Positions 1 to 62,779 of a DNA stretch of 64,000 nucleotides are shown here, piece after piece. How positions within the stretch are numbered: position 1 is the stretch's first letter; every line of letters begins with the position of its first letter. Origin of the DNA: a virus. A model generated the notes under the pieces. The model did no database searches and was not told where the DNA came from. It worked only from the letters and a program-made list of their open reading frames with translations. A program made the position numbers and the translations under genes. The stretch is from the IMG/VR virus record IMGVR_UViG_3300045988_131044, positions 19,100-83,099 of that record, one strand, 5' to 3'.

Positions 1-1215
1 TTCAACATAGGTCAGAATGAAAATATATCATCTTTGTGCAAGATTAGCAATAACTTGTACAATCAGGCGTTATATATTTTCAGAGAAACACTTTCTAAAG
101 AAGATAAGTGGTTATCTTATTTTGAACTTGATACTATCATGAAGAATACTAAGAACTTGGATGGGAATATCAATTACAAATTATTAAAAGCGCAATGTTC
201 TCAACAAGTTCTTCGTATTATTGATAAAAACATTAAAAGTTATTACAAAACGGTCCAAGATTACAAAAAACATCCAACTAAGTATAAGGAAAAACCTGGT
301 CTTCCAAATTACAAAAAGAGAGGTTCTGAGTTCAATTTGTATTACACGAGCCAGAGTTGCAAAATAAAAGATGGGAAAATAATCCTATCAAAAGATATTT
401 CAATACCCATTCCTCAATATGAGAAGTATTCTGATTTGATAAAAGATTTCAAACAGATTAGAATAAAACCATCATCATGTGGATATAAAATAGAAATCAT
501 TTATGAGGTAAAAGATATTGAAGTGTCTAAAGGTATGGAAGAGAAAGTTGCTTCAATCGATTTAGGGATTGATAATCTTGCAACTCTTATCAGTGAGGAT
601 TTTACTGTTCTATTTAGTGGTAAATTTGTTAAATCATACAATAAGCTATTCAATAAGACATTAGCTAAATTAAATAGTATCAAAGATTTACAAAAGATAA
701 AAGGGATAACGAAACGAATAAAGAAATTATATTATGATAGAGAACAGTACATAGAAGATGTCTTTCATAAAATCAGTAGAAAGATAGTTGATTTACTTAT
801 CGATTCCAAGATAACAAAATTAGTTGTAGGCTATAACAAGGGATGGAAACAAAATGTAAATATAGGTAAAAAGAATAACCAAAAGTTTACCCAAATCCCT
901 TTTGCGAGATTAGTTAGTTACTTAGAATACAAATGTGAATTAGCTGGTATTGAAATAGTTATCAATGAAGAATCATATACTTCAAAATGTGATTCTCTTG
1001 CATTTGAGAAGATAGGAAAACATGAAAACTATTTAGGAAAAAGGAGAAAACGAGGATTATTTCAATCCTCTACAGGAAAGCTCATTAATGCCGATGTAAA
1101 TGGAGCATTAAACATTATGAGAAAAGTAGTCGGTGATTCTTGTGAATCAATTCGTAGGATAATCGATAGAGGGTTATTGTTTAACCCGGTAAGGATTACG
1201 AATGTATTTTGTTAA
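1..1215 (+). CDS. TnpB-like RNA-guided endonuclease, zinc-finger-less variant of IS605 OrfB family; 5' end cut by window edge (frame open back to nt 1)
   Basis: RuvC-I SIDLGIDN, RuvC-II INEESYTSK, RuvC-III NADVNGALNI; region where TnpB has CxxC...CxxC has one Cys; paralog of 22425..23615 which has ~15 more N-terminal aa. Confidence 0.8.
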   Translation, partial: FNIGQNENISSLCKISNNLYNQALYIFRETLSKEDKWLSYFELDTIMKNTKNLDGNINYKLLKAQCSQQVLRIIDKNIKSYYKTVQDYKKHPTKYKEKPGLPNYKKRGSEFNLYYTSQSCKIKDGKIILSKDISIPIPQYEKYSDLIKDFKQIRIKPSSCGYKIEIIYEVKDIEVSKGMEEKVASIDLGIDNLATLISEDFTVLFSGKFVKSYNKLFNKTLAKLNSIKDLQKIKGITKRIKKLYYDREQYIEDVFHKISRKIVDLLIDSKITKLVVGYNKGWKQNVNIGKKNNQKFTQIPFARLVSYLEYKCELAGIEIVINEESYTSKCDSLAFEKIGKHENYLGKRRKRGLFQSSTGKLINADVNGALNIMRKVVGDSCESIRRIIDRGLLFNPVRITNVFC

Positions 1216-4080: not shown

Positions 4081-4294
4081 CAGTGCTTTACCCAAAATGG
4101 GAAAGGCAAAAGTTTATGATTATCAGGTTTTCCCCTTAAATGGGGGAAAATTAATTATTGTGTATTATACTTCCGTTTTTGCTGAAAATACTTCTCTTCT
4201 ATAGGAAACAAACACACCTGTATTCCACCCTGCAATCATGATCTTTGTTACGTGCTTCATGCACGTATGTTTAACAATTAAATACTATAAAATT

Positions 4295-5302
4295 ATGGGT
4301 GGTGATAAAATCGTCCTTTTAGATGGAGCCGGGGCTAACGGTGGTGGTGCAGCCACTAACGGTCTTCTTTCAATGATTCCCGGCATGTTTGCTAATTTGA
4401 TAGGTGGTAATAAAATGGATCCGAATCTGGTGGCGGCTTTGATGAACGGTCGTAATAACCAGGACGGTTTCGGTGGGGCTAACGGTTGGTGGCTCTGGAT
4501 AATTGTTTTGTTCTGGCTGTGGGGTGGACGCGGCTTCGGTAACGGTTTTGGAAATGGTGGTGATTGTTGCGCCAATGGTTTACCCGCTCAGTTGAATAAC
4601 GATTACGGTCGTGAGCTTCTGATGCAGGCAATTCAAGGTAATCGTAGCGCTATAGATCAGATCGCTTCTGCTTTGAACTGCTCTACTACTCAACTTCAGA
4701 ACGCTATCTGCAACGTACAGGGTGCTATTGATAAAGTAGCTGGTCAGGTAGGTATGACTTCTCAGGCTGTTATCAACGCAGTTCAACAACAAGGTTGTGA
4801 AATCGGAAATCAAATCAGCTCTTGCTGCTGCAATCTGAGTTCGTTGATCAATCAAAGCACTTGCCAGACTCAGGGAATGATTACTCAGCAAGGTTTTGAT
4901 AACCAGCTTCGCACGTTGGAACAAACCAATATCTTGCAGAACGGTCTCAACCAAGGTCTGGCTAACAATCGTGAGCAAGCTACAAGCCAATTCAATATCT
5001 TGTCTGCGAAACTTGACGCTCAAACCGTTATGATCAACGACAAATTCTGTCAGTTGGAAATGAGGGAGATGCAGAACACTATTGCTCAACTTCGTGAAGA
5101 AAAAGCGGCTTTGACAGCTTCGGCATTATCTCAGCAACAAACCCAGAATATCGTTGGTCAATTACGCCCGACGGCCGTCCCAGCCTACCCCTCTTGTTCT
5201 CCTTACCAGGCTTATTCTTGGGGACAGGTATTCGGAGGAGGTTACTGCAATAACGGATGTGGATGTAACAACGGATGTTGCAATAACAACGCTGCTGTCT
5301 GA
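4295..5302 (+). CDS. Gly-rich N-terminus with W-rich hydrophobic segment, Gln-rich coiled-coil middle, Cys/Asn-rich C-terminus; hypothetical structural/membrane-associated protein
   Basis: ORF 4238..5302; start placed at internal ATG 4295 because first 19 codons look non-protein; alternative start 4238. Confidence 0.45.
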   Translation: MGGDKIVLLDGAGANGGGAATNGLLSMIPGMFANLIGGNKMDPNLVAALMNGRNNQDGFGGANGWWLWIIVLFWLWGGRGFGNGFGNGGDCCANGLPAQLNNDYGRELLMQAIQGNRSAIDQIASALNCSTTQLQNAICNVQGAIDKVAGQVGMTSQAVINAVQQQGCEIGNQISSCCCNLSSLINQSTCQTQGMITQQGFDNQLRTLEQTNILQNGLNQGLANNREQATSQFNILSAKLDAQTVMINDKFCQLEMREMQNTIAQLREEKAALTASALSQQQTQNIVGQLRPTAVPAYPSCSPYQAYSWGQVFGGGYCNNGCGCNNGCCNNNAAV

Positions 5303-7970: not shown

Positions 7971-8170
7971 AAACACTACTTTTAAACGTACCTTCTTTCT
8001 CTGGTAAGATAGTTTCTCCTACCTGGATTAAAGTCGTAAGGGATTTCCAATCTAAATCGAAGGCAGAAAGAGACTCGTATTGTTCGGTTTGTGGATGTAC
8101 GGGAGGGGGTAACTTATGCGATGATGTAAGTAAATATAGGATTTCAGAACAACTAAAATATTACAAATAA
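7967..8170 (+). CDS. hypothetical small Cys-containing protein
   Basis: ATGA overlap with neighbours. Confidence 0.4.
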   Translation: MKTLLLNVPSFSGKIVSPTWIKVVRDFQSKSKAERDSYCSVCGCTGGGNLCDDVSKYRISEQLKYYK

Positions 8171-8439
8171 TGGAATTAAAAGATTTAGTCAGGATAATGA
8201 CAAAAGAAGAGTTCGAATCAGCAATCAACGAAGATATTAAATTCGTTGAAAGATTTAAGCATTTTTTTAAACATGATGATGTTGCGAGGATAATAGAACA
8301 CGTAAAGTCAGTGTTAGAAGCATCAGTGGACTACTGCTATCCGAATCATCCTGAACCTAAAGCAGAACCTGGAGACATGGGAGAGGTTTCTGATGGATAC
8401 CATACTTTCAATATCCGAAATAACATTAAAACAATATAA
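8170..8439 (+). CDS. hypothetical small protein
   Basis: overlapping start; stop TAA immediately precedes the omegaRNA-like block. Confidence 0.45.
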   Translation: MELKDLVRIMTKEEFESAINEDIKFVERFKHFFKHDDVARIIEHVKSVLEASVDYCYPNHPEPKAEPGDMGEVSDGYHTFNIRNNIKTI

Positions 8440-8690
8440 TTCCATTATAAGGTTTTAATGTACCAGAAATGGTCCGGATATTAGCCTAAGCCTTGAAACG
8501 AAGGCTACGTTATTTGAGAATAGATAGTTACCTACGGATGTTTGTCCAAGTCCGTAGCTCTAAGGCAAGCGATTAAACAGAGATTGTATTCGGGTTTCAG
8601 TGTTGCTTGCGAAAAACCTCTTATAACATTGGCGATGGGTACTAACAGGATGAAATATTCCTGACTTATGTTGAATAAACATTAAAAACG
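8425..8690 (+). ncRNA. IscB-associated structured RNA (omegaRNA scaffold / left end of IS200/605-like element)
   Basis: non-coding block directly 5' of iscB with several hairpins; homologous inverted copy at 30640..30960 with compensatory changes. Confidence 0.6.
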
Positions 8691-8699
8691 TTTGTAGAT

Positions 8700-9920
8700 A
8701 TGGTGTATGTACAAGACATAGATGGTAAACCTCTGATGCCAACAACAAGACATGGAAAGGTTAGGAGACTGCTCAAATCAAACAAAGCAGTCGTTGTAAA
8801 CCTATGTCCGTTTACCATCCGATTGACGTACATATCCGATAGTTACAAACAAGAAATTGTATTAGGCGTTGATGCTGGAACCAAACATGTTGGTCTATCA
8901 GCAACGACGAAAAGCAAAGAACTTTACAGCAGTGAAGTAATTCTTAGAAATGATATCGTAGATCTTTTGTCTACCAGAAGAGAGCTACGGAAAGCAAGAC
9001 GGAACAGGTTAAGATATAGAAAACCTCGTTTTGATAACAGAGTAAAAAGCAAGCGTCCAGGATGGATAGCACCTTCGGTGAAATACAAAGTAGACGCCCA
9101 TATTTGCGTTATTAACAATGTTTGCTCTATACTACCAATATCTCGTATTGTTATTGAAGTAGCTCAATTCGATACTCAAAAGATTAAGAATCCTGAGATA
9201 TCAGGTAAAGAATACCAGGAAGGTGATCAACTTGAGTTTTGGAACACAAGGGAGTATGTTTTAGCAAGAGATGGTCATAAATGCCAGTATTGTAAAGGCA
9301 AGTCAAAAGATTCTATACTGAATGTTCATCATATTGAGTCTCGAAAAACCGGAGGGGATTCCCCTTCTAATCTTATAACTTTATGTGAAACATGTCACAA
9401 AGAATACCATAAAGGTAATATAGATTTAAAGATCAGAAGAGGCAAGTCGCTTCGCGACGCAGCCGTAATGGGAATTATGAAATGGAGGTTGTATGAAGAG
9501 TTAAAATCCAGATACGACAGAGTTTTTATGACGTTTGGTTACATTACGAAACATAATCGGATTAAATATGGGATTGAAAAATCCCATACATCCGACGCGT
9601 TTGTCATTTCTAAGAATATTAATGCGAAACGAATCGAACGTCAATATTTAAAACGTTTAATTCGTAGACATAATAGACAAATACATAAAATGAAAATTTT
9701 AAAAGGGGGGAAGAAGAAAAACAATCAAGCTCCTTTTGAGGTTTTCGGTTTTAGGTTGTTTGATAGAGTGTTGTATAACAATAAAATATTCTTTGTTTAT
9801 GGAAGGAGAAAATCAGGGAGTTTCAATATCAGGGATTTCAACGGAGAAAATTCAAAAGATGTTTCACGCAAAAAGTTTAAACTCATTAGAGGGAAGAGGC
9901 ATCCGATTATATTAAAGTAA
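8700..9920 (+). CDS. iscB: IscB RNA-guided HNH/RuvC endonuclease (RRXRR/HNH family)
   Basis: N-terminal PLMP motif, RuvC-I LGVDAGTKHVGLS, Arg-rich bridge RRELRKARRNRLRYRKPRF, RuvC-II IEVAQFD, HNH CQYC...NVHHI...LCETCHKEYH, RuvC-III HTSDAF. Confidence 0.85.
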   Translation: MVYVQDIDGKPLMPTTRHGKVRRLLKSNKAVVVNLCPFTIRLTYISDSYKQEIVLGVDAGTKHVGLSATTKSKELYSSEVILRNDIVDLLSTRRELRKARRNRLRYRKPRFDNRVKSKRPGWIAPSVKYKVDAHICVINNVCSILPISRIVIEVAQFDTQKIKNPEISGKEYQEGDQLEFWNTREYVLARDGHKCQYCKGKSKDSILNVHHIESRKTGGDSPSNLITLCETCHKEYHKGNIDLKIRRGKSLRDAAVMGIMKWRLYEELKSRYDRVFMTFGYITKHNRIKYGIEKSHTSDAFVISKNINAKRIERQYLKRLIRRHNRQIHKMKILKGGKKKNNQAPFEVFGFRLFDRVLYNNKIFFVYGRRKSGSFNIRDFNGENSKDVSRKKFKLIRGKRHPIILK

Positions 9921-9957
9921 ATGAACGGATTTAATAAATTTAATAGAAAAACGTATC

Positions 9958-10263
9958 ATGTATAATAAAGAAATAGTAATATGCGCGGCCATCTGGGTGC
10001 AGGACGGCAAGAAGCGTCCTCATCAGCCCACCAATATACCATCCGGCGCCGTGTTCTGTGGATTGAGACATTGTTCTATCATTTCTCAGTTTGCAGCTTA
10101 TGGTATTGCTCATAAGAACCGTAGTATTCAAGGATTTTTGACAAGCAAGAACCGGTTTCTAACAAGAGAGGAAGCGTCTGAACTTGTTAGAAACAATAAT
10201 CAGGAGATGGTGGTAGATAGGAATGCCATTAGAGAACAATTGTATTCAGAAGATTTATATTAA
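9958..10263 (+). CDS. hypothetical protein (101 aa) between iscB and tnpB; not a TnpA (no HuH motif)
   Basis: ATG ORF. Confidence 0.4.
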   Translation: MYNKEIVICAAIWVQDGKKRPHQPTNIPSGAVFCGLRHCSIISQFAAYGIAHKNRSIQGFLTSKNRFLTREEASELVRNNNQEMVVDRNAIREQLYSEDLY

Positions 10264-10345
10264 CTAAAAACAAAATAATATGGGATTTATAATTATTTAA
10301 CCAACAAAACCACCATACCTTAGCAAGTGGATGAATTGGGTTGAT

Positions 10346-10353
10346 TAATTTTG
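10346..10353 (+). promoter_or_regulatory. Bacteroidota-type -7 element TAATTTTG upstream of tnpB
   Basis: TAnnTTTG 24 nt before ATG 10377. Confidence 0.35.
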
Positions 10354-10376
10354 AATCAAAATTACAGATAAAAAAA

Positions 10377-11516
10377 ATGATTTCATACAAATACAACATC
10401 TATCATTCGAAGAAAACGAAGTATCTTGACAAGATGCTTCGTGAATGTTGTTTTGTATGGAATCATGCGTTAGCTCTACAACGTAGGTATCACAAACTGT
10501 TTGGAAAATATATTTCAGTCGGTAAGATGAAGAAACATTTTGCCAAGAGGATTAGGAGAAACTTGCTTCATTCTCAAACAACACAAGAGATACTTGAACG
10601 TCTTGATGAATCTTATAATCGTTTCTTTAAGAAGTTGGCTAAACGACCTCCTAAGTTCAAAAGAGCTTCTTGTTTTAACTCTTTTGTTTTCAAACAAGGA
10701 GGGTTTACCCTAAATGGTAATTGTCTAACAATTAACAAAGGAAAGAAACGATTTAAGTTTTCATACAGTAGATCTTATGAAGGTAATGTTAAACAAATTA
10801 GAATAGTTAGAGAAACCTGTTCCCGTTTTAGTTTGATTATAGTTACAGACTATAATCCTTCAAACTCTTATAGAAAGACACATGATGGTGCATCTATCGG
10901 ATTGGATTTTGGGCTGAAAACTTATCTGACTAAAAGCGATGGTAGCAAAATCGATTCTCCATTATTCTTCAAACAATATCAAAACAAGATTAGAAAACTA
11001 AGTAAGAAATTTTCTAATGCAAAGAAAGGATCTAATAATAGGAGAAGGAGACTGTTTGAACTCCAACAAACGTATCGTAAAATAAACAATCTTCGATCAG
11101 ATTTTCAATGGGGATTAGCACACCAGTTATGCAAACAGTATGATTATATTTTTATTGAAGATCTAAACATTGAAGGAATGAAACGTTTGTGGGGAAAGAA
11201 AGTTTCCGATCTTAGTCACTCTTCTTTTATTGACAAACTTACGTATGTTGCTTTAAAATATGGAGTGATAGTACACAAGATTGACAAATGGTATCCTTCT
11301 TCCAAAACTTGCGAATGTGGCTGCATTAATAAAGGTCTGTCGTTACGCGACCGCACGTGGGTGTGCCCGTCGTGCGGTGCAGTTAACGACCGTGATGTTC
11401 TTGCAGCCCGTAATATACTTCGGAAGGGCATTTCCGAATTGGAGAGTATGGGTAATTCCAGCGGTAGAAATACCGGGGTTTCATGCGTTTGTATCCAAGA
11501 ATCCCATTCGCTTTAG
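10377..11516 (+). CDS. tnpB: TnpB RNA-guided endonuclease (IS605 OrfB family, canonical with zinc finger)
   Basis: RuvC-I IGLDFGLKT, RuvC-II IFIEDLNI, ZnF CECGC...CPSCG, RuvC-III DRDVLAARNI; ORF 10341 begins with TTG, first ATG 10377. Confidence 0.85.
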   Translation: MISYKYNIYHSKKTKYLDKMLRECCFVWNHALALQRRYHKLFGKYISVGKMKKHFAKRIRRNLLHSQTTQEILERLDESYNRFFKKLAKRPPKFKRASCFNSFVFKQGGFTLNGNCLTINKGKKRFKFSYSRSYEGNVKQIRIVRETCSRFSLIIVTDYNPSNSYRKTHDGASIGLDFGLKTYLTKSDGSKIDSPLFFKQYQNKIRKLSKKFSNAKKGSNNRRRRLFELQQTYRKINNLRSDFQWGLAHQLCKQYDYIFIEDLNIEGMKRLWGKKVSDLSHSSFIDKLTYVALKYGVIVHKIDKWYPSSKTCECGCINKGLSLRDRTWVCPSCGAVNDRDVLAARNILRKGISELESMGNSSGRNTGVSCVCIQESHSL

Positions 11517-19081: not shown

Positions 19082-19735
19082 ATGTTGTCAATTATTGCTA
19101 TCTTGCAAACAAAAATCATGAGACGAAGATTTCAAATAGGGATGGGGGTAAATCCCTCGCTTATAATCAATAAAGGCATATACATCCAACATGTAGATGG
19201 AGGATTATATACAAAAGAAAATTGGTCTAATAAAGGATATTCCAATGATCTATGCAATGGAATAGCTCTTGTAGATAAAGTGTGTTTTGTTATAGCCACC
19301 GAATATATTGGCACATCTCGTTGGGGTAAGGATGGACAAATAGACAATATATTTGCACAAGATAGTTCTCATATTGGAACTATTAAAAAGGATTATTGGG
19401 GGCGTGAAAATCAGAATGCGTATCTTGAATATGATACCAGTAATACAGATTACGCTTTTAATAAAGCTAATAGCTATTTATTTAAGAATGGTCAAAATGG
19501 ATATGTAGGTGGCGCCGGAGAGTTTTTTTTGATATCATTGTATGCTAATGAAATAAACGAATGCCTTTTAATGGTAGGAGGTACGATAATGAGTAATAGA
19601 ATGTGGACATCCACTCGAAATGAAAAATCTACCTATTCGTGGTATTATGATATAAACATCCAAGGAGATCATTTGGATACAGGTTCAAGGGGTAGTTCAC
19701 GTTATGTCCGTCCTTTTACTGAATTAATTTTATGA
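19082..19735 (+). CDS. DUF1566 (Lcl C-terminal)-like domain protein, possible fibre/receptor-binding protein
   Basis: C-terminal MWTSTRNEKSTYSWYYDI...SRYVRPF resembles DUF1566; start uncertain (19082, 19118 or 19142). Confidence 0.45.
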   Translation: MLSIIAILQTKIMRRRFQIGMGVNPSLIINKGIYIQHVDGGLYTKENWSNKGYSNDLCNGIALVDKVCFVIATEYIGTSRWGKDGQIDNIFAQDSSHIGTIKKDYWGRENQNAYLEYDTSNTDYAFNKANSYLFKNGQNGYVGGAGEFFLISLYANEINECLLMVGGTIMSNRMWTSTRNEKSTYSWYYDINIQGDHLDTGSRGSSRYVRPFTELIL

Positions 19736-22424: not shown

Positions 22425-23615
22425 TCACAAAATATTTATTCTAACCGGATTAAACACAAATCCACTATCGATTATCTTTCCAATGAAAGAATCACCGACT
22501 ACTTTTCTTGCTATTCCTATAGCTCCATTAATATCAGCATTAATTAGCTTTCCAACGGAACTTTGGAATAATCCACGTTTCTTTCTTTTCCCTAAATAGG
22601 ATTCTTGTTTCTTTAGAGGTTCAAAAGCAAGATGGTCAATCTTTGATGTGTAAGATTCCTCATGAGTAATTACCTCTATCCCTAAAAGATTTGCTTTGTA
22701 AACAATCTTATCAATCAATTTAGAATGAGGAATAGAAACAAAATGTTGGTTATTCCTTTTACCGATATTTATCTCGTTTTTCCATTCTTTGTTTAATCCA
22801 ATGATGATTGTTCCTATATTGTTAGATTTACAAAAGTCTACAATGTATCTACTGATTTTATGCAATTTGTCTTCTATCCAACAATTTCTAAACAAAGTAA
22901 TTTTTCTTATTCTATTTGAAGTTCCCTTATTACCAACAAAAGACATCAACTTAGCTTTCTTCTTATTGTACCACTGATTTACTGATTTCATAACCCGTCC
23001 GTTTATAATGAAAGAATTAGTTTCTACATTACTAATACATGAACATAAATTATTCAATCCTAAATCAATCGAAAGAAAATTGTCTTTGTTTAAACCAAGA
23101 TCAGTTTCCTTTCTTTCATAAACTACCTCTACTACATAACATGTAGCTTGAGGGATTATTCTAACTTGTTTTAGTTCGTCTTTCTTTACATTTGTTTTGA
23201 TAGGTTTGATTATATCTTTAACAAAATAAATACAATTATCACCCTTTACCCTACAATTGCAGTTGGTGAAAACAACCATGTTTTGTTTCTTACCTTGTTT
23301 GTATGATGGAAGGTGAGGTCTATGATTTCCGTATTTAGAAGGATTCTTTTCAAAATCCTTCTTGAGTTTTATCCAGGATTTTATGTTTTTAAATACCTGT
23401 TTAATCACCTGTTGGGATACATGATTAGGTAAATTCCTGAAATCGAATTGGTTTTCTCTTCCTAACTTAGTCGAAAATTCATATTCTTTCAGATAGTTAC
23501 CAGAGAAAATACCTTGTCTGACGTTGTAAAGAACATAGTTGTACAACAAACCGGATTTGAGGCATATATCCTCAAACCGGTTGTCTTTAACTATATGCCT
23601 TTCAACTAATCTCAT
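22425..23615 (-). CDS. TnpB-like RNA-guided endonuclease, zinc-finger-less variant, full length (396 aa)
   Basis: RuvC-I SIDLGLNN, RuvC-II ITHEESYTSK, RuvC-III NADINGAIGI; C-terminal half ~75% identical to 1..1215. Confidence 0.85.
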   Translation of the reverse strand: MRLVERHIVKDNRFEDICLKSGLLYNYVLYNVRQGIFSGNYLKEYEFSTKLGRENQFDFRNLPNHVSQQVIKQVFKNIKSWIKLKKDFEKNPSKYGNHRPHLPSYKQGKKQNMVVFTNCNCRVKGDNCIYFVKDIIKPIKTNVKKDELKQVRIIPQATCYVVEVVYERKETDLGLNKDNFLSIDLGLNNLCSCISNVETNSFIINGRVMKSVNQWYNKKKAKLMSFVGNKGTSNRIRKITLFRNCWIEDKLHKISRYIVDFCKSNNIGTIIIGLNKEWKNEINIGKRNNQHFVSIPHSKLIDKIVYKANLLGIEVITHEESYTSKIDHLAFEPLKKQESYLGKRKKRGLFQSSVGKLINADINGAIGIARKVVGDSFIGKIIDSGFVFNPVRINIL

Positions 23616-29243: not shown

Positions 29244-30259
29244 CGTTTTATCTTTTTAGACGGATCCCAATCCGAAGAGAAAGGGCATTCGTTTTTGTTA
29301 TGTAATCCAAAGTCACAATAATAACACAGTGCTGACGGGCAGGGTAGTTTGTTTTGCGTAACAGGCTGGCTTAGGGTGGCACGCCGCTTGCCATACCTGG
29401 CTCCTTCTGCTCCCTGGATGTACGCTTGAAATGATTTTACACTATTATCTTCAAAATCATACATTTTAGATAAAGTGTCATTTAGCATCTCTATAGATTT
29501 TGTTTTACGTTCTTCATCTACCTTAACCTTTTGATACTGCCTGGTCCTGGTAAAGAAATAGATGTTCATATCTGGTAGAACCCCACCGTATTTTCTATAG
29601 ATGTAAAACGAATATATAGGATGCTGTAAATTTGTTTCCAATTTCTTAGAGTCAAAAACCTTATTTCCTGATTTCCAATCTATGACATAATGGTGAACTA
29701 CGTTCTTGCTTTTTATAGCCAGATGAAGGTCTACCGATCCTACTATGTACACATGAGTATGAACGGTCCCATTTATATCAACAGGCTTAGGAAGACGGTA
29801 TGGTAGCACAAAATCTTCTTCGACTCCAACTATAGCGCCGTGTCTGATAAGTTTCTCACAGGGATTAAGATCACTATCAGCTATCATAAACCTATTGCCG
29901 TCTTTTTTAAATAGATCCACAATCCAAGCAAGAAGCTCCCCGGATTGCTTCATGGCTATCATCATATTTTCCGGTGATTGCCAAGGTATGTCTTCTTGGT
30001 AAGCATAGTAACTTATAGCTTCTCCAAGGTCTTTACCAGAAGGCTGTTTTCCGTTCTTGAAGAAGTATTCCAGTGTCTTATGAATAACCGTACCATAAGA
30101 CGTAGCTTCTTGTTTTTCCGTAGATCTTTTGCCCTCCACGTAAGTTTTATACCATTTCATTGGACAAGTAAGAAACGTATCTATCTGGGAATAAGATATG
30201 GCAAGACGTTTCACACCATTAAACTCCTTATATAGCAAATGCGTTTCCGGGACCATCAT
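29240..30259 (-). CDS. Cas4-like / RecB-family PD-(D/E)XK nuclease with C-terminal Cys cluster
   Basis: VIDWKSG (DYKTG-like) motif; C-x4-C-x2-C-x9-C at C-terminus. Confidence 0.55.
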   Translation of the reverse strand: MMVPETHLLYKEFNGVKRLAISYSQIDTFLTCPMKWYKTYVEGKRSTEKQEATSYGTVIHKTLEYFFKNGKQPSGKDLGEAISYYAYQEDIPWQSPENMMIAMKQSGELLAWIVDLFKKDGNRFMIADSDLNPCEKLIRHGAIVGVEEDFVLPYRLPKPVDINGTVHTHVYIVGSVDLHLAIKSKNVVHHYVIDWKSGNKVFDSKKLETNLQHPIYSFYIYRKYGGVLPDMNIYFFTRTRQYQKVKVDEERKTKSIEMLNDTLSKMYDFEDNSVKSFQAYIQGAEGARYGKRRATLSQPVTQNKLPCPSALCYYCDFGLHNKNECPFSSDWDPSKKIKR

Positions 30260-30603
30260 AAGTCATTGTCTTTAAATCCTTCCGGGTAATATACGACATA
30301 CTTCTTACCGTCTTCTGGTGTCATGGCAAACTGCATGTAGTTATTACAATTACGATGCTTGCCATCCAATCCTCGTTTCCAATACAGGATACCGTCTATA
30401 TCCACATAAGATCGGCCGCGTTCGGCTCTAACCACGTCCGTGTGTAGCAGATACCCGTCGGAAGACACAATCCACACTTTATCTCCTTTGTTTAAATAAG
30501 ATATTCTTTTTCTTACAATAACCTTTTTCTTATTATCCAATACAAATTCCTCATCAGTCATACTCTTCGTCCTCCTCTTCTTCTGTTTCAAAATCAATTC
30601 CAT
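30256..30603 (-). CDS. hypothetical protein (115 aa) downstream of orphan omegaRNA-like element
   Basis: ATG ORF. Confidence 0.5.
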   Translation of the reverse strand: MELILKQKKRRTKSMTDEEFVLDNKKKVIVRKRISYLNKGDKVWIVSSDGYLLHTDVVRAERGRSYVDIDGILYWKRGLDGKHRNCNNYMQFAMTPEDGKKYVVYYPEGFKDNDL

Positions 30604-30639
30604 ATCTCATATTCTATTAAATATATTTAAAGCTATTCA

Positions 30640-30960
30640 TATGTTTTAATACATCCCCTCGGAGACCTTCCGGTCTCCGAGGTAGATGTAAATCCCGTTA
30701 GGGATAAGTCAGGATTTCTCCTGTAAGTACCCATCGCCAATGTTATAAGAGGTTTTATATAATGGCAACACTGTTTCGTCAAATACACTACTCCTGTTTA
30801 ATCACCATCCTTAGAGCAAGAAACTTGGATAAACATTCCTTGGTAACTATTTATTCTCAAATAACGTAGCCTCTGTTTCAAGGCTTAGGCTAATAACCCG
30901 ATCTCTGAAAGAGATGTATTAAACTTTTATAATAGAATTATATTGGGTTAATACTATTTG
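30640..30960 (-). ncRNA. orphan omegaRNA-like structured RNA / IscB-element left-end copy without nuclease gene; ends in GC hairpin cctcggagacc-GGAA-ggtctccgagg (30657..30682)
   Basis: ~75% nt identity to 8425..8690 in inverse orientation; two stems differ by compensatory changes. Confidence 0.55.
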
Positions 30961-31142
30961 GGGTTATAACACCGATCATAATGCTTGGTCAGTTCTTCTG
31001 GTTCTAAATCTTGTCCAAAATCCATGTTAAAAATATCGTAATTAGTAAAGCACTTAAAATCACTGTCCCTGCCGGCAGGAAATCTATGAATGCTGCTTTT
31101 GCTTCTTCAATTAGGCCCAAGTGTAACCTTGGGCCATTGTAT

Positions 31143-32843
31143 TTATTTTTTGTCATCTCCTTTTAACTTCTTTAAAGTATCTGCAATCGGAAGCTGATCA
31201 ATGACTCCCAATGCCGGAGCGACGGTCTTAACAACATTGTTAAGAAAATTACCGGTACTGTTCTGACCGCCGTCAAATACCGTGATATTTCCGAGGTTAA
31301 TGTGCTCAAATGCCTTAACCTGTTCTCCGGCAATTTCTTTCCACTGATTAACCATCTTGTACTGGATGGCGATCTGAGGATTGGATTCTGCTGCTTCCAC
31401 CATAGCCTTAAATCCGTCGGCTTCTGCCATCAACGACTTTTTCTTACCTTCGGCTTCTGCCTCCAGCTTCATCTGAATAGCTTTTGCTTCCGCTTCTGCT
31501 TTTGCCAAATGTGCTGCTGCTTCGGCATCAGCCCGGCGTTTGATCTTCTCAGCTTCAGCATCAGCTTGCAACATAGCCTCCTGCTTCTGAATTTCAGCCG
31601 GCACAATCTTTTCAGCTTTAAGCGCAGCTTGAACCTTCTTAGCTTTAGCTTCTTCCACTTCTTTATCAGCAAGCTCTTTTGCCGTTTTCACAGCCGCTTC
31701 CGATTTAACTCTCTCTTCTCCGGCTTTCTTTTCTGATTGAGCTTTGATAACCTGTAGCTCTGATTCTGATACAGCAACCTCTTTCTGAGCATTGTTGTAG
31801 CCTACAGAAGCATTTTTCTCAGCCTCAGCTTTCTTAATCTGAGCTTCAGAGTCTTGTATTGCTATAGCTGCTTGTTTATCAGCTTCAGCTTTATTCTTCC
31901 CGACTTCTTCCATTCTTTCGGCTTCAGCTTTGTTTACTTCAAGTTCTGCCTTAGATCTTGCGATCGCTGATTCCTTATCAGCCAAAGTCTTTGCAATAAC
32001 CGCAGCCCTATCTCTATCGGCTTGAGCTACACCGATCTGTTTTTCTTTATCGGTTAAAGCCAAAGCTACTTCTTTTTCTTTCTTTGTTTCAGCTACTACC
32101 GTTTCCTTTTCTTTTTCAGTACAAGCAATTTGAATCTCTTGTTCTTTTTTGGTATTAGCTACAGCCGTTTCTTTTTCCTTTTGCTGTACAGCAATCTTAA
32201 TAGCACCCAGCTTTTCCTGTTCTTCGATATTAGCCTGTGCTTCGTTCAGGGCCTTACTTTCAGCTTCTTTGCCAAGATTCATGATATAGCCGGCTTCGTC
32301 TCTGATGTCACTGATGTTGATATTTAGGAGGTAAAGGCCTAACTTATTAAGTTCGTTATCAATGTTTTTTCTTGCCTTATCCAAAAACTCATCCCTGTCA
32401 GAATTAAGTTTTTCAATCGTCATTTCAGCAATGATCAAACGCATTTGGCCATAAACGATATCCGTAATAAGATTTTCAGTAGATTCAGTATCCATCCCCA
32501 AAAGCCTTTCTGCTGCATTCTGCATAATTTCAGGATTTGTGCTGATTGCTACTGTAATAGTAGTAGGTACATCCACTCTGATATTTTGAGACGACAAAGC
32601 ACCGGTGAGCCTACAATCTATTTGCATAGGCTCCATAGACAAAATATCATAGCTTTGAATAATAGGCAAGACGAATGCCGCTCCACCATGATATAATTTC
32701 GCCGATTTCTTTTCCCCACCTGTCTTACCATAAACGACCAAGACTTGATTAGGTTTACATCTACGATACCTTGATAAGACTCCGATGATTGTCAAAATAA
32801 TCACTACAGCTAAAATAGCTGACACGTACATGATTGTTGTCAT
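31143..32843 (-). CDS. flotillin / SPFH (band-7) family protein (YqiK-like)
   Basis: N-terminal TM, SPFH-like domain, long EA/K-rich coiled coil. Confidence 0.8.
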   Translation of the reverse strand: MTTIMYVSAILAVVIILTIIGVLSRYRRCKPNQVLVVYGKTGGEKKSAKLYHGGAAFVLPIIQSYDILSMEPMQIDCRLTGALSSQNIRVDVPTTITVAISTNPEIMQNAAERLLGMDTESTENLITDIVYGQMRLIIAEMTIEKLNSDRDEFLDKARKNIDNELNKLGLYLLNINISDIRDEAGYIMNLGKEAESKALNEAQANIEEQEKLGAIKIAVQQKEKETAVANTKKEQEIQIACTEKEKETVVAETKKEKEVALALTDKEKQIGVAQADRDRAAVIAKTLADKESAIARSKAELEVNKAEAERMEEVGKNKAEADKQAAIAIQDSEAQIKKAEAEKNASVGYNNAQKEVAVSESELQVIKAQSEKKAGEERVKSEAAVKTAKELADKEVEEAKAKKVQAALKAEKIVPAEIQKQEAMLQADAEAEKIKRRADAEAAAHLAKAEAEAKAIQMKLEAEAEGKKKSLMAEADGFKAMVEAAESNPQIAIQYKMVNQWKEIAGEQVKAFEHINLGNITVFDGGQNSTGNFLNNVVKTVAPALGVIDQLPIADTLKKLKGDDKK

Positions 32844-51050: not shown

Positions 51051-51784
51051 TTTTCTGGATTTTCAGCAGTTCCTAAAAGACATTCATTACCCTCAAAAGG
51101 AATGCAACAGTCCCATAATGTTCCATTGGAACATTCATACTTATAAGACAATCCATCAGAATCGTCCACAATTTCCCTTGCAAACAAGCTGATATGCCAT
51201 TCTTTATCGCCCTCGTCTCTTACCAGCACTTTGTCAAACGGCTTAAACTCATATTTCGGCTCTTCTTTAATCCCGAAGAAGCGTTTCAGATACTCTTTAG
51301 CTTTAGGTTCTTTGCTTGCCTTTAATGCGTCAACCAACTTTTGTCTTTCGGACTCAGTGGCAAATCTGTATTTTTCTATCTGATTTTCCCCAGCAGATAA
51401 ACCATCTTTTATTTTAAGAATACCTTTTTGATTTAAAGAGGCATAAAAAGACGTTAAATATTTCCCATGTGTATTTAAAATAAAGATATAGCTACCATCT
51501 TTATTACTTAACACCTCTCCATCTTTAAATGTAATATATTCTGGAACTTCAAGAAGGAGGCGATTTTCGCTGCTAAGTGCTTTTCCTGTAGCAGAAAACC
51601 AGTCTGCCGATACAGAAATCGAATGAATTACAACCAATAACGGACAATTTGACGAATTGTCTTCATATACGATTTCTGCTCTATTTTGTCCTTTCTCTGT
51701 CACAATACGACCTGCTATTTCCCCTATGTTTATTTTTTTCGCCGTTTCTAAATCAAACGGAATTGTTGCTGTTCTCTGTTCCAT
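51047..51784 (-). CDS. hypothetical protein, tandem paralog of 51789..52532
   Basis: shared PFDL.TA.KI..GEI.G, KPFD.VLVR, HLFAR, KYEC, CIP[FY][EQ]GNE.LLGT motifs. Confidence 0.5.
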   Translation of the reverse strand: MEQRTATIPFDLETAKKINIGEIAGRIVTEKGQNRAEIVYEDNSSNCPLLVVIHSISVSADWFSATGKALSSENRLLLEVPEYITFKDGEVLSNKDGSYIFILNTHGKYLTSFYASLNQKGILKIKDGLSAGENQIEKYRFATESERQKLVDALKASKEPKAKEYLKRFFGIKEEPKYEFKPFDKVLVRDEGDKEWHISLFAREIVDDSDGLSYKYECSNGTLWDCCIPFEGNECLLGTAENPEK

Positions 51785-51788
51785 GATC

Positions 51789-52532
51789 TTATTTGCTTTT
51801 ATTAGTTCCTAAAAGATGCTCATTTCCTTGGTATGGAATACACTCTTTGTATCTCAAACCTCCCAAGCATTCATATTTGTATTCTTCTTCTCTTACTCTG
51901 GCAAATAAGTGTAGATTCCAATTTCCCAAATTGCTTGCTCTCACCAAGACTTGATCGAATGGCTTAAAATCGCATTTCTTTTCTTTAGTCAGCAAGTATT
52001 CGTACTCACTTAGATATTGTTTTATTATTCCTGCTTTTTTAAGGTTTTCTGTATTAGCAATTCTTTCAGCAAAAGATTTTTTCTCTTCCTCTGTGGCTAA
52101 TCTAACATACTTGGATTTATCCTCACCACACACACTTGTCCATATTGGAACTTCTTCAGATGTAATCTCGCCATATGCCGATATACCATATATGCATCCC
52201 ATATCTCCTTCTCTATTAATAATACCATTATATATAAATGGGTTCCCAAGCGTGCTTATTAATACATCTCCTTTCTTAAAATACGCTCCAGCCTCTACTT
52301 CCAATTCCAGAACGTTGTTGAAAAAAGTACGACCTTCTGTATCGGCATATATAGCACTTATCCCAGATTCATCTTTTTTTACAAAAAGTAAATTATAACG
52401 ATCTGCACAGTCTTTTGACTCATATACAAATTCTATTTTAATATTACCAATTAATACTGAACCTTCTATTTCTCCGCTTTTAATTTTTCTCGCCGTATTT
52501 AAATCAAACGGAACAATAATTGGATTTTCCAT
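51789..52532 (-). CDS. hypothetical protein, tandem paralog of 51047..51784
   Basis: as for 51047..51784. Confidence 0.5.
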   Translation of the reverse strand: MENPIIVPFDLNTARKIKSGEIEGSVLIGNIKIEFVYESKDCADRYNLLFVKKDESGISAIYADTEGRTFFNNVLELEVEAGAYFKKGDVLISTLGNPFIYNGIINREGDMGCIYGISAYGEITSEEVPIWTSVCGEDKSKYVRLATEEEKKSFAERIANTENLKKAGIIKQYLSEYEYLLTKEKKCDFKPFDQVLVRASNLGNWNLHLFARVREEEYKYECLGGLRYKECIPYQGNEHLLGTNKSK

Positions 52533-62439: not shown

Positions 62440-62523
62440 GTTGTTTATGTTTTAATTGTTATACATTCCGCTTGAAAAAAAAATACTCACATAATGCAGT
62501 CTTTAACCCTTACCTACAGAATA

Positions 62524-62779
62524 CTGTTTTAAAAACGCTGTAAGTCTTAATTTTGTTGGAAAATCCTACATTGTGCTGTTTTAAAGCACTGCAATCCTTA
62601 ATTTTGTTGGAAAATCCTACATTGTGCTGTTTTAAAGCACTGCAATCCTTAATTTTGTTGGAAGAGACTACAAAATGCTGTTTTAAAGCTCTGCAATCCT
62701 TAATTTTGTTGGAAGAGACTACAAAATGCTGTTTTAAAGCTCTGATCTATTGAATTTTGTTGGAAGAGAGTGCCCTCCC
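62524..62779 (+). repeat. 5 tandem copies of a 51-bp direct repeat (two subtypes), each containing TAATTTTG; last copy degenerate
   Basis: units 62524, 62576, 62627, 62678, 62729; conserved ctgttttaaagc[at]ctgcaatccttaattttgttgga + variable 15 nt. Confidence 0.8.

Follow-up and report, generated by a model that had tools for sequence, protein, structure and literature searches.

A gene-less IscB ωRNA mini-element in an epsilon crAss-like phage and its possible role as a trans-acting guide

Why should a phage genome that encodes one IscB nuclease carry a second IscB guide RNA (ωRNA) with no nuclease gene beside it? The question is raised by a 64,000-nt stretch of virus DNA (positions 19,100 to 83,099 of IMG/VR record IMGVR_UViG_3300045988_131044; hereafter the window), in which an initial annotation, made from the sequence alone, noted an IscB ωRNA-like element and an inverted, orphan second copy of it. 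We call these copy A and copy B, respectively. An Rfam scan over the whole window gave exactly two matches above the gathering score (83), both to RF02033 (HEARO, the IscB ωRNA): copy A at 8436..8646 on the plus strand (105.2 bits, E=1e-20), and copy B at 30967..30723 on the minus strand (95.2 bits, E=3e-18), the latter covering the full model (1-211). By sequence and predicted structure, copy B is a real, intact IscB ωRNA. It does not lie directly upstream of iscB, which makes it an orphan without affecting its place in the RNA family; no IscB similarity was found downstream, and the next open reading frame (ORF), of 115 aa (30256..30603, minus strand), has no Pfam match and is unrelated, as had been noted. 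Around copy B, the flanking DNA is 95% identical to that of csAssE-Sib (OR575929.1), a human gut epsilon crAss-like phage of 151 kb (PMC11054128).

The two copies are 77.8% identical over 266 nt by BLAST (79% column identity in a direct alignment), close to the approximately 75% reported at first, and their similarity extends from about 8411/30967 to 8669/30704, where it stops abruptly after CCTGACTTAT. The differences between them had been read as compensatory changes in stems, and both stem pairs quoted in support agree with that reading. The 8-bp stem CUACGGAU/GUCCGUAG of copy A corresponds to CAAGGAAU/GUUUCUUG in copy B with three double changes, one G-U change and no breaks, and ACCA-GAAA-UGGT (8462..8473, copy A) occupies a hairpin position equivalent to that of AUCUCU-UUC-AGAGAU in copy B. 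Copy B scores above the threshold for RF02033 and has the nexus, pseudoknot and stem architecture of that family; the Rfam model stops before the terminal hairpin and the orphan-specific module described below. The scaffold of copy B (30704..30967, minus strand), identified by its RF02033 score and by covariation, runs from the P1 helix through the terminal hairpin CAGGA-GAAA-UCCUG and ACUUAU.

Selection on RNA structure, initially proposed from these two copies, is evident throughout the family. Across 92 unique scaffolds, 98.5% of cells in the RNAalifold structure were paired versus 91.7% in column shuffles (0 of 500), and 13 of 32 pairs had changes on both sides against 7.6 expected, a count that none of the 500 shuffles reached. 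As a control, sliding the pairing partners lowered the paired fraction to 32-44%. An alignment restricted to orphans (57 unique elements of three types), that is, ωRNAs without an adjoining iscB, likewise had compensatory changes in 19 of 58 predicted pairs and few non-canonical cells. The scaffolds in the 92-member alignment are also mosaics of exchangeable modules (e.g. loci L018, L066, L094 and L095), and in some IscB-linked copies the 5' half resembles that of A and the 3' half that of B. As read from the alignment, such mosaicism implies frequent recombination or gene conversion among ωRNA copies, both orphan and IscB-linked.

Comparison with uninterrupted relatives places the ends of the copy B insertion. 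In csAssE-Sib, GATCAGTGTT is joined directly to ATGGAATTG, whereas the window has GATCGGTGTT, then 364 nt, then ATGGAATTG; read on the minus strand, csAssE-Sib has GATCAGTGTTATGGAATTGATTTTG where the window has GATCGGTGTT, the 364 nt and ATGGAATTGATTTTG. The site, GTGTT/ATGGAA with the slash marking the junction, is uninterrupted in csAssE-Sib and in 110 viral contig stretches. The window junctions overlap by 2-3 nt (AT/TAT), which leaves some ambiguity in the boundary. Other sites of the B element, such as locus L086, where the flank ends in G, assign the AT to the element, and no target duplication therefore needs to be assumed at copy B. The whole orphan mini-element (30604..30967, minus strand; 364 nt) consists of the scaffold, a hairpin module and a far end, and has no ORF of its own. 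It lies between the stop codon of a 50-aa ORF (31004..31156, minus strand) and the ATG (30603) of the 115-aa ORF, all co-oriented, and ATGGAA (30598..30603, minus strand) is both the target-adjacent motif (TAM) of the empty site and the start codon of the 115-aa ORF. Copy B was thus inserted, without target duplication, directly before the ATG of a phage gene, and its lineage likewise at many other ATGs in related epsilon crAss-like phages.

The anatomy of the insert relates it to the IscB element of copy A. Its far end (30604..30650, minus strand; the left end in TnpA orientation) is 47 nt long, AT-rich and homologous by alignment to 9905..9957, the final 53 nt of the IscB element, which take in the last few iscB codons and the motif TTTAATAGAA. 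In place of iscB stands a double-hairpin module of about 55 nt, made up of a small hairpin, CCC-UAAC-GGG (30694..30703, minus strand), found in all three orphan types and not in copy A, and a long hairpin, ACAUCUA.CCUCGGAGACC-GGAA-GGUCUCCGAGGGGAUGU (30651..30689, minus strand; RNAfold -35.3 kcal/mol). Taken together, scaffold, module and far end give the element both ends of an IscB element, with the hairpin module in the position of iscB. With presence/absence polymorphism without duplication, a target motif, and both ends in common with a protein-coding relative, copy B is, as judged from its sequence, a gene-less, non-autonomous mini-transposon of IS200/IS605 (ISC/IscB) type. A nuclease-less derivative resembling a miniature inverted-repeat transposable element (MITE) had been among the options listed in the initial annotation, and the empty sites, the homologous far end and the near-identical copies at many sites all favor it. 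A coding remnant of a degraded gene is ruled out as the source of the similarity, since the tail retains no more than about 12 nt from the 3' end of iscB.

The GC hairpin with a GGAA loop had been recognized from the start as an 11-bp stem; this core falls within 30661..30682 and grows to about 18 bp with flanking bases. MT838317-type and L015-type orphans have the same structure at this position with a different sequence. By alignment, the module is present in neither copy A nor A-type far ends, and derivation of the hairpin from the copy A far end, which has none, is ruled out. Near the ωRNA end of the element are the hairpins SL1 and SL2. A distance of 47 nt separates the strong GC hairpin from the far end, and the copy A end has no counterpart of it. 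In IS608-type ends, the TnpA hairpin is expected nearer the element end than 47 nt. Because it lacks a U-tract, we do not call the long hairpin of the window copy an intrinsic terminator, and the classical form of that role is unsupported there. The long hairpin of L015-type orphans is followed by the terminator-like AUUUUUAU, and from this sequence a terminator role in that type is plausible. In general, the long hairpin may act as a terminator, an RNase or processing site, or a stabiliser, or may define or protect the ωRNA 3' end.

We surveyed the distribution of the element with an 18-nt scaffold core, AACATTGGCGATGGGTAC, as query in IMG/VR and in bacterial and archaeal species genomes. The core occurred in at least 119 IMG/VR contig stretches, mostly on contigs of 80-160 kb, and in 11 stretches among 185,579 bacterial and archaeal species genomes; its near absence from the latter rules out a host origin. 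Among the core matches listed, an IscB ORF starts 70-90 nt downstream in 86 and is absent in about 30, so that related phages carry the element both with and without iscB. Three orphan types were recognized (B-type, MT838317-type and L015-type), mutually diverged to about 80%, which all keep the whole 264-nt scaffold and follow a common plan of ωRNA, CCC/GGG hairpin, long hairpin and AT-rich end.

The B-type was followed with the orphan-specific 5' module alone, AACCCCAAATAGTATTAA, as query, a choice that does not favor intact copies. This search returned 75 viral contig stretches, giving 77 B-type copies with the window included, in about 25 combinations of flanking sequence. B-type scaffolds at different sites are 92-100% identical to the window copy; the nearest IscB-linked scaffold is about 85% identical, and copy A 78%. 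The exact 3' core is kept in 70 of the 72 assessable copies, 65 of the 67 copies whose far end was located measure 357-369 nt (364 nt exactly in 37), and a single internally truncated copy was seen among 72 found without using the 3' part. At the window site, about 26 stretches are occupied and 110 viral contig stretches are empty, so the insertion is a minority presence/absence allele, with occupied and empty forms found side by side in one phage population. The separateness of the B lineage, the lower identity to copy A than to the nearest IscB-linked scaffold, and the many sites rule out a single deletion event in the resident copy A. On these sequence relationships, the B element belongs to a distinct, phage-borne orphan lineage.

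B-type orphans and IscB occur together in at least 14 contigs besides the window, a lower bound because the scans covered parts of contigs. The complete, isolated 61-kb genome of Parabacteroides phage PF672P2 (OP172820.1) has one strong orphan HEARO/ωRNA (130 bits; L004 3018..3231) that ends about 45 nt before the ATG of a gene, and no IscB, TnpA or second HEARO was found in that genome. At locus L317 (1946..2537; contig 3300045988_109117), near a B-type orphan, an iscB is internally deleted, with residues 1-46 joined to 250-403; to judge by its sequence, it may be an intermediate stage of nuclease loss.

The guide of each ωRNA follows from the position of its P1 helix. In copy B, AUAACCC (30961..30967, minus strand) pairs over 7 bp with GGGUUAU (30893..30899, minus strand), which lies just before the conserved UAGCC, and the first base of P1 is the insertion boundary set by the empty site. 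Across 115 copies with about 50 distinct upstream flanks, this 7-bp helix covaries (ATAACCT/AGGTTAT in 21, ATAACCC/GGGTTAT in 16, ATAATCG/CGATTAT in 13, ATAATCA/TGATTAT in 9 and ATATCCG/CGGATAT in 6, among others). The initial annotation held that both copies begin right after CAATATAA and share a guide, and neither statement survives. The motif is at 8432..8439, 2 nt from the position first given and inside the first stem-loop, and homology and the covarying P1 begin 21 nt upstream of it, at 8411 and 30967; P1 and the empty site together rule out CAATATAA as the boundary. The preprint of Meers 2023 (10.1101/2023.03.14.532601) describes the scaffold of the IscB ωRNA as coming from the right end of the transposon and the guide as the sequence that adjoins it on the 5' side, beyond the transposon, with transcription of the ωRNA having to start outside the element. 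Since the guide lies just outside the transposon boundary, the predicted guides are CATTATGATCGGTGTT for copy B (30968..30983, minus strand; flanking phage DNA in the 3' untranslated region of the 50-aa ORF) and GGATACCATACTTTCA for copy A (8395..8410, plus strand; inside a truncated DUF2829 gene). The two are unrelated in sequence, and neither matches elsewhere in the window at 3 or fewer mismatches.

This placement of the guide differs from the one that Rfam coordinates would give for copy A. The RF02033 alignment of copy A has a poorly paired P1 at 8436; the P1 formed by AUAUCCG (8411..8417) and CGGAUAU (8475..8481) indicates that it starts 25 nt late, with the 5' end registered at 8436 rather than 8411, and guide calls from Rfam coordinates would be off by the same 25 nt. 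For annotation of such loci, the guide should be taken as the flank upstream of P1, as the Rfam model may set the 5' end wrongly.

All junctions in the family, orphan or full-length, directly precede an ATG, mostly ATGR (for example ATGGAA, ATGAAA, ATGAAG, ATGGAC, ATGGAT, ATGATA, ATGAGA and ATGTAT). This sequence pattern fits the N/ATGA target class described for ISC elements by Kapitonov, Makarova and Koonin 2016 (PMC4810608), and it also fits the expected correspondence between the IscB TAM and the TnpA target. Target-specific insertion of IS200/605 type, as first suggested, is therefore real in its specificity; the motif is ATG(R) at the other end of the element and not CAATATAA. The ATG next to an orphan normally starts a co-oriented gene, and insertion consequently leaves that gene intact. 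In the occupied state, the protospacer is followed by the scaffold (ATAACC in B, ATATCC in A) and not by ATG.

The predicted B target, across empty and occupied variants of the site, is CATTATGATC(G/A)GTGTT+ATGGAA. At position 6 from the TAM (30973 in the window; loci L124-L233), the window guide has G, and all 111 uninterrupted B sites seen have A (ATGATCAGTGTT), so the window guide mismatches every empty allele seen. Occupied B sites are evenly divided at this position (A in 13, and G in 13 with the window included). Either the G postdates the insertion, or conversion has by now reached every G-type site. Among B-type copies at the window site, a single ATGGAATT junction occurs with six different guide-side flanks. 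One such flank, GCTTTACTAATT, lies inside the upstream 50-aa ORF, a position that implies deletions beside the ωRNA end that would retarget the guide.

We propose, at a probability of roughly 0.55, that copy B is a trans-acting guide for the resident IscB, with retention or homing of the mini-element as the result. Read-through from the upstream co-oriented gene, the 50-aa ORF, would transcribe the 16-nt flank guide fused to the intact scaffold; no convincing terminator was found between that ORF and the mini-element. The resident IscB, whose gene lies 21 kb from copy B, would then load ωRNA B in trans, and the complex would cut insert-free copies of the locus, in which the protospacer is followed by the ATG TAM. 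Such copies would include the donor joint left by excision and, in a co-infecting relative, the empty allele, and recombinational repair would restore or spread the mini-element. The occupied site itself would be safe, because the scaffold ATAACC replaces the TAM. Movement to new sites would need TnpA in trans.

The only candidate nuclease for the orphan ωRNA in the window is the product of iscB (8700..9920, plus strand; 406 aa, Pfam RRXRR + HNH). Its alignment with solved IscB structures (OgeuIscB; E=1e-42) has conserved HNH and RuvC motifs, the latter being D, E and H..D, and the enzyme is apparently catalytically competent. Its use of ωRNA B in trans is supported by the ATG(R) junction common to orphans and IscB-linked copies, by the co-occurrence of B-type orphans and IscB, and by the middle and 3' modules that B has in common with IscB-linked scaffolds. 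The middle module is 95% identical to scaffolds adjoining iscB, and the 3' module 91.5% identical to iscB-adjoining scaffolds whose IscBs are 91-93% identical to that of the window. The proposal also draws on the intact, covarying scaffold, kept in full by 70 of the 72 assessable B-type copies, on the mobility of the element and on the position of the guide at the P1 boundary. The literature on standalone ωRNAs and on ωRNA-bearing palindrome-associated transposable elements (PATEs) lends further support: a passage of Hirano 2022 (PMC9581776) citing Altae-Tran 2021 states that standalone ωRNAs function with IscB, and PATE ωRNAs need a nuclease in trans (Meers 2023, 10.1101/2023.03.14.532601). 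Transposon homing into co-infecting phages is already listed as a category in a 2026 review.

Several observations weigh against this proposal. The 5' module of B (P1 and two stem-loops) is at most 67.5% identical to any IscB-linked scaffold, and with a module so diverged, loading by the window IscB is not guaranteed, although deletion of the SL1 stem-loop in the guide-adaptor region left IsrB nicking unaffected, according to a passage of PMC9581776. The position-6 mismatch would weaken cutting of the empty alleles now present, no TnpA was found in the 64-kb window, and PF672P2 indicates that orphans can persist without a nuclease in the same genome. Since the scaffolds are mosaic, pairing could be partly preserved by exchange with functional copies. 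Finally, many of the IMG/VR contigs share a single sample set as their origin and cannot count as independent.

Some of these same points would be expected if copy B were a passive hitch-hiker, a PATE-like TnpA substrate without a guide role whose ωRNA is kept by overlap with the transposon end or by youth. The near identity of the B-type copies would then reflect recent spread with little time to decay, conversion from functional copies could account for the preserved pairing, and neither the orphan in an IscB-less phage nor a window guide that mismatches all empty sites seen would need explaining. TnpA, however, should need the subterminal region only, yet the 264-nt scaffold has been kept in three diverged orphan types, compensatory changes occur in distal stems, and internal truncation is confined to that one copy among 72; we consider a purely passive element unlikely. 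The position of every copy exactly at the ATG of a co-oriented gene, together with a strong hairpin and AT-rich tail in every orphan type and the terminator-like AUUUUUAU of the L015-type, could also point to an exapted cis element with no dependence on IscB, acting as 5' leader, terminator-insulator or RNase site for the 115-aa gene. ATG placement is nevertheless explained by the target motif, which full-length IscB elements have in common, and the window hairpin has no U-tract. The 115-aa gene, moreover, must work without the insert, given that insertion is in the minority (about 26 versus 110). Such a cis role is therefore improbable, and exaptation as a regulatory RNA, another of the options first listed, found no specific support.

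The remaining alternative looks for the nuclease elsewhere, with copy B acting as a guide or decoy that redirects or soaks up an IscB of the host or of a competing phage. Both the orphan ωRNA of the IscB-less PF672P2 and the lineage-specific 5' module of B would suit such a role, which we nonetheless judge very improbable, as the subfamily is nearly absent from bacteria (the 11 stretches against at least 119 viral ones) and a matching IscB is encoded in the same phage genome.

Were copy B indeed a trans-acting guide for the resident IscB, a broader system might exist in epsilon crAss-like phages, in which one IscB serves several ωRNA mini-elements as a distributed, RNA-guided gene-drive or competitor-exclusion system. 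We put this forward tentatively and hold it doubtful. Up to two or three mini-elements occur per genome; each would carry its own guide, the private 3' hairpin module would release or stabilise the RNA, and many loci would be converted or cut at once in co-infecting relatives. Such a system would be a natural intermediate, with one nuclease and many guides, between OMEGA and CRISPR, and could also drive the mosaic flanks around the elements.

The kind of element to which copy B belongs is known already, and it does not form a new category; standalone ωRNAs, ωRNA-bearing PATEs and the ATGA target class have all been published. Like the standalone ωRNAs of Altae-Tran 2021, as described in a passage of PMC9581776, it has no adjacent iscB, an IscB elsewhere in the genome, an intact scaffold and its own guide. 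It differs from the standalone ωRNAs of that passage in its lytic-type crAss-like phage setting, its distinct lineage, its private 5' module and its double-hairpin module, and it is known from sequence. PATEs (Meers 2023, 10.1101/2023.03.14.532601) are similarly gene-less, with IS200/IS605-type ends and with TnpA and nuclease supplied in trans; in the discussion of that preprint, PATE ωRNAs need TnpB in trans and PATEs are related to ISGst1 and ISGst5, whereas copy B is IscB-type. ISC transposons (PMC4810608) likewise insert without duplication directly upstream of ATGA/ATGR and have the ωRNA/iscB strand antisense to the TnpA 'top' strand. The ISC elements that have been described carry iscB, which copy B lacks, and in these phages the ATG is usually the start codon of a gene. 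Collaborative or intronless homing by free-standing phage homing endonucleases (PMC13565253) offers a parallel, in that a nuclease-less segment spreads by means of an endonuclease encoded elsewhere in the phage, as we propose here; unlike in those systems, specificity would come from an RNA guide on the spreading segment.

Not described in the consulted literature, and to that extent new, are the crAss-like setting, the size and separateness of the lineage, the hairpin module and the systematic placement at start codons. The lineage offers an abundant natural test case for trans use of ωRNAs by IscB and for RNA-guided homing between co-infecting phages. In epsilon crAss-like phages, presence/absence variation and mosaic junctions also stem to a notable degree from IS200/IS605-type elements (IscB, TnpB and gene-less ωRNA); a published analysis of the group mentions only "TnpB transposases" (PMC11054128).

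The full-length IscB element of copy A (8411..9957, plus strand) consists of the scaffold (8411..8669), iscB (8700..9920) and the far end (9921..9957). The guide-A sequence is directly followed by ATGAAT, the empty target, in about 45 relatives including csAssE-Sib, and the ORF at 8170..8439 encodes the first 81 aa of a DUF2829 protein and then runs into the ωRNA. An exact empty site joining both present flanks of copy A was not found; with the real empty target, guide plus ATGAAT, inside the DUF2829 gene, copy A must have hybrid flanks. Its far side (9921..9960) abuts the ATG of a 101-aa ORF, which in csAssE-Sib lies 778 nt further on, and at least five other contigs have the same far junction with different guide-side flanks. 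The sequence of the hybrid flanks (cf. L002 3224..4255) suggests deletion, or recombination between elements at different sites.

A TnpB element also occupies the window (10294..~11650; ORF 10341..11516), with Pfam OrfB_IS605 and Cas12f1-like TNB domains. It sits after GGGATTTATAAT, where csAssE-Sib has no insert. A near-identical TnpB at locus L146 is adjoined by a divergent 132-aa Y1 TnpA (4098..4496, E=4e-31), making that an autonomous version; the only TnpA found in relatives is within this TnpB element. Self-comparison of the window further revealed a 451-nt inverted pair (751..1196 versus 22438..22877, 68% identity), a tandem-like repeat (62513..62769) and a 53-nt direct pair (51710..51762 versus 52461..52513), all unrelated to the ωRNA.

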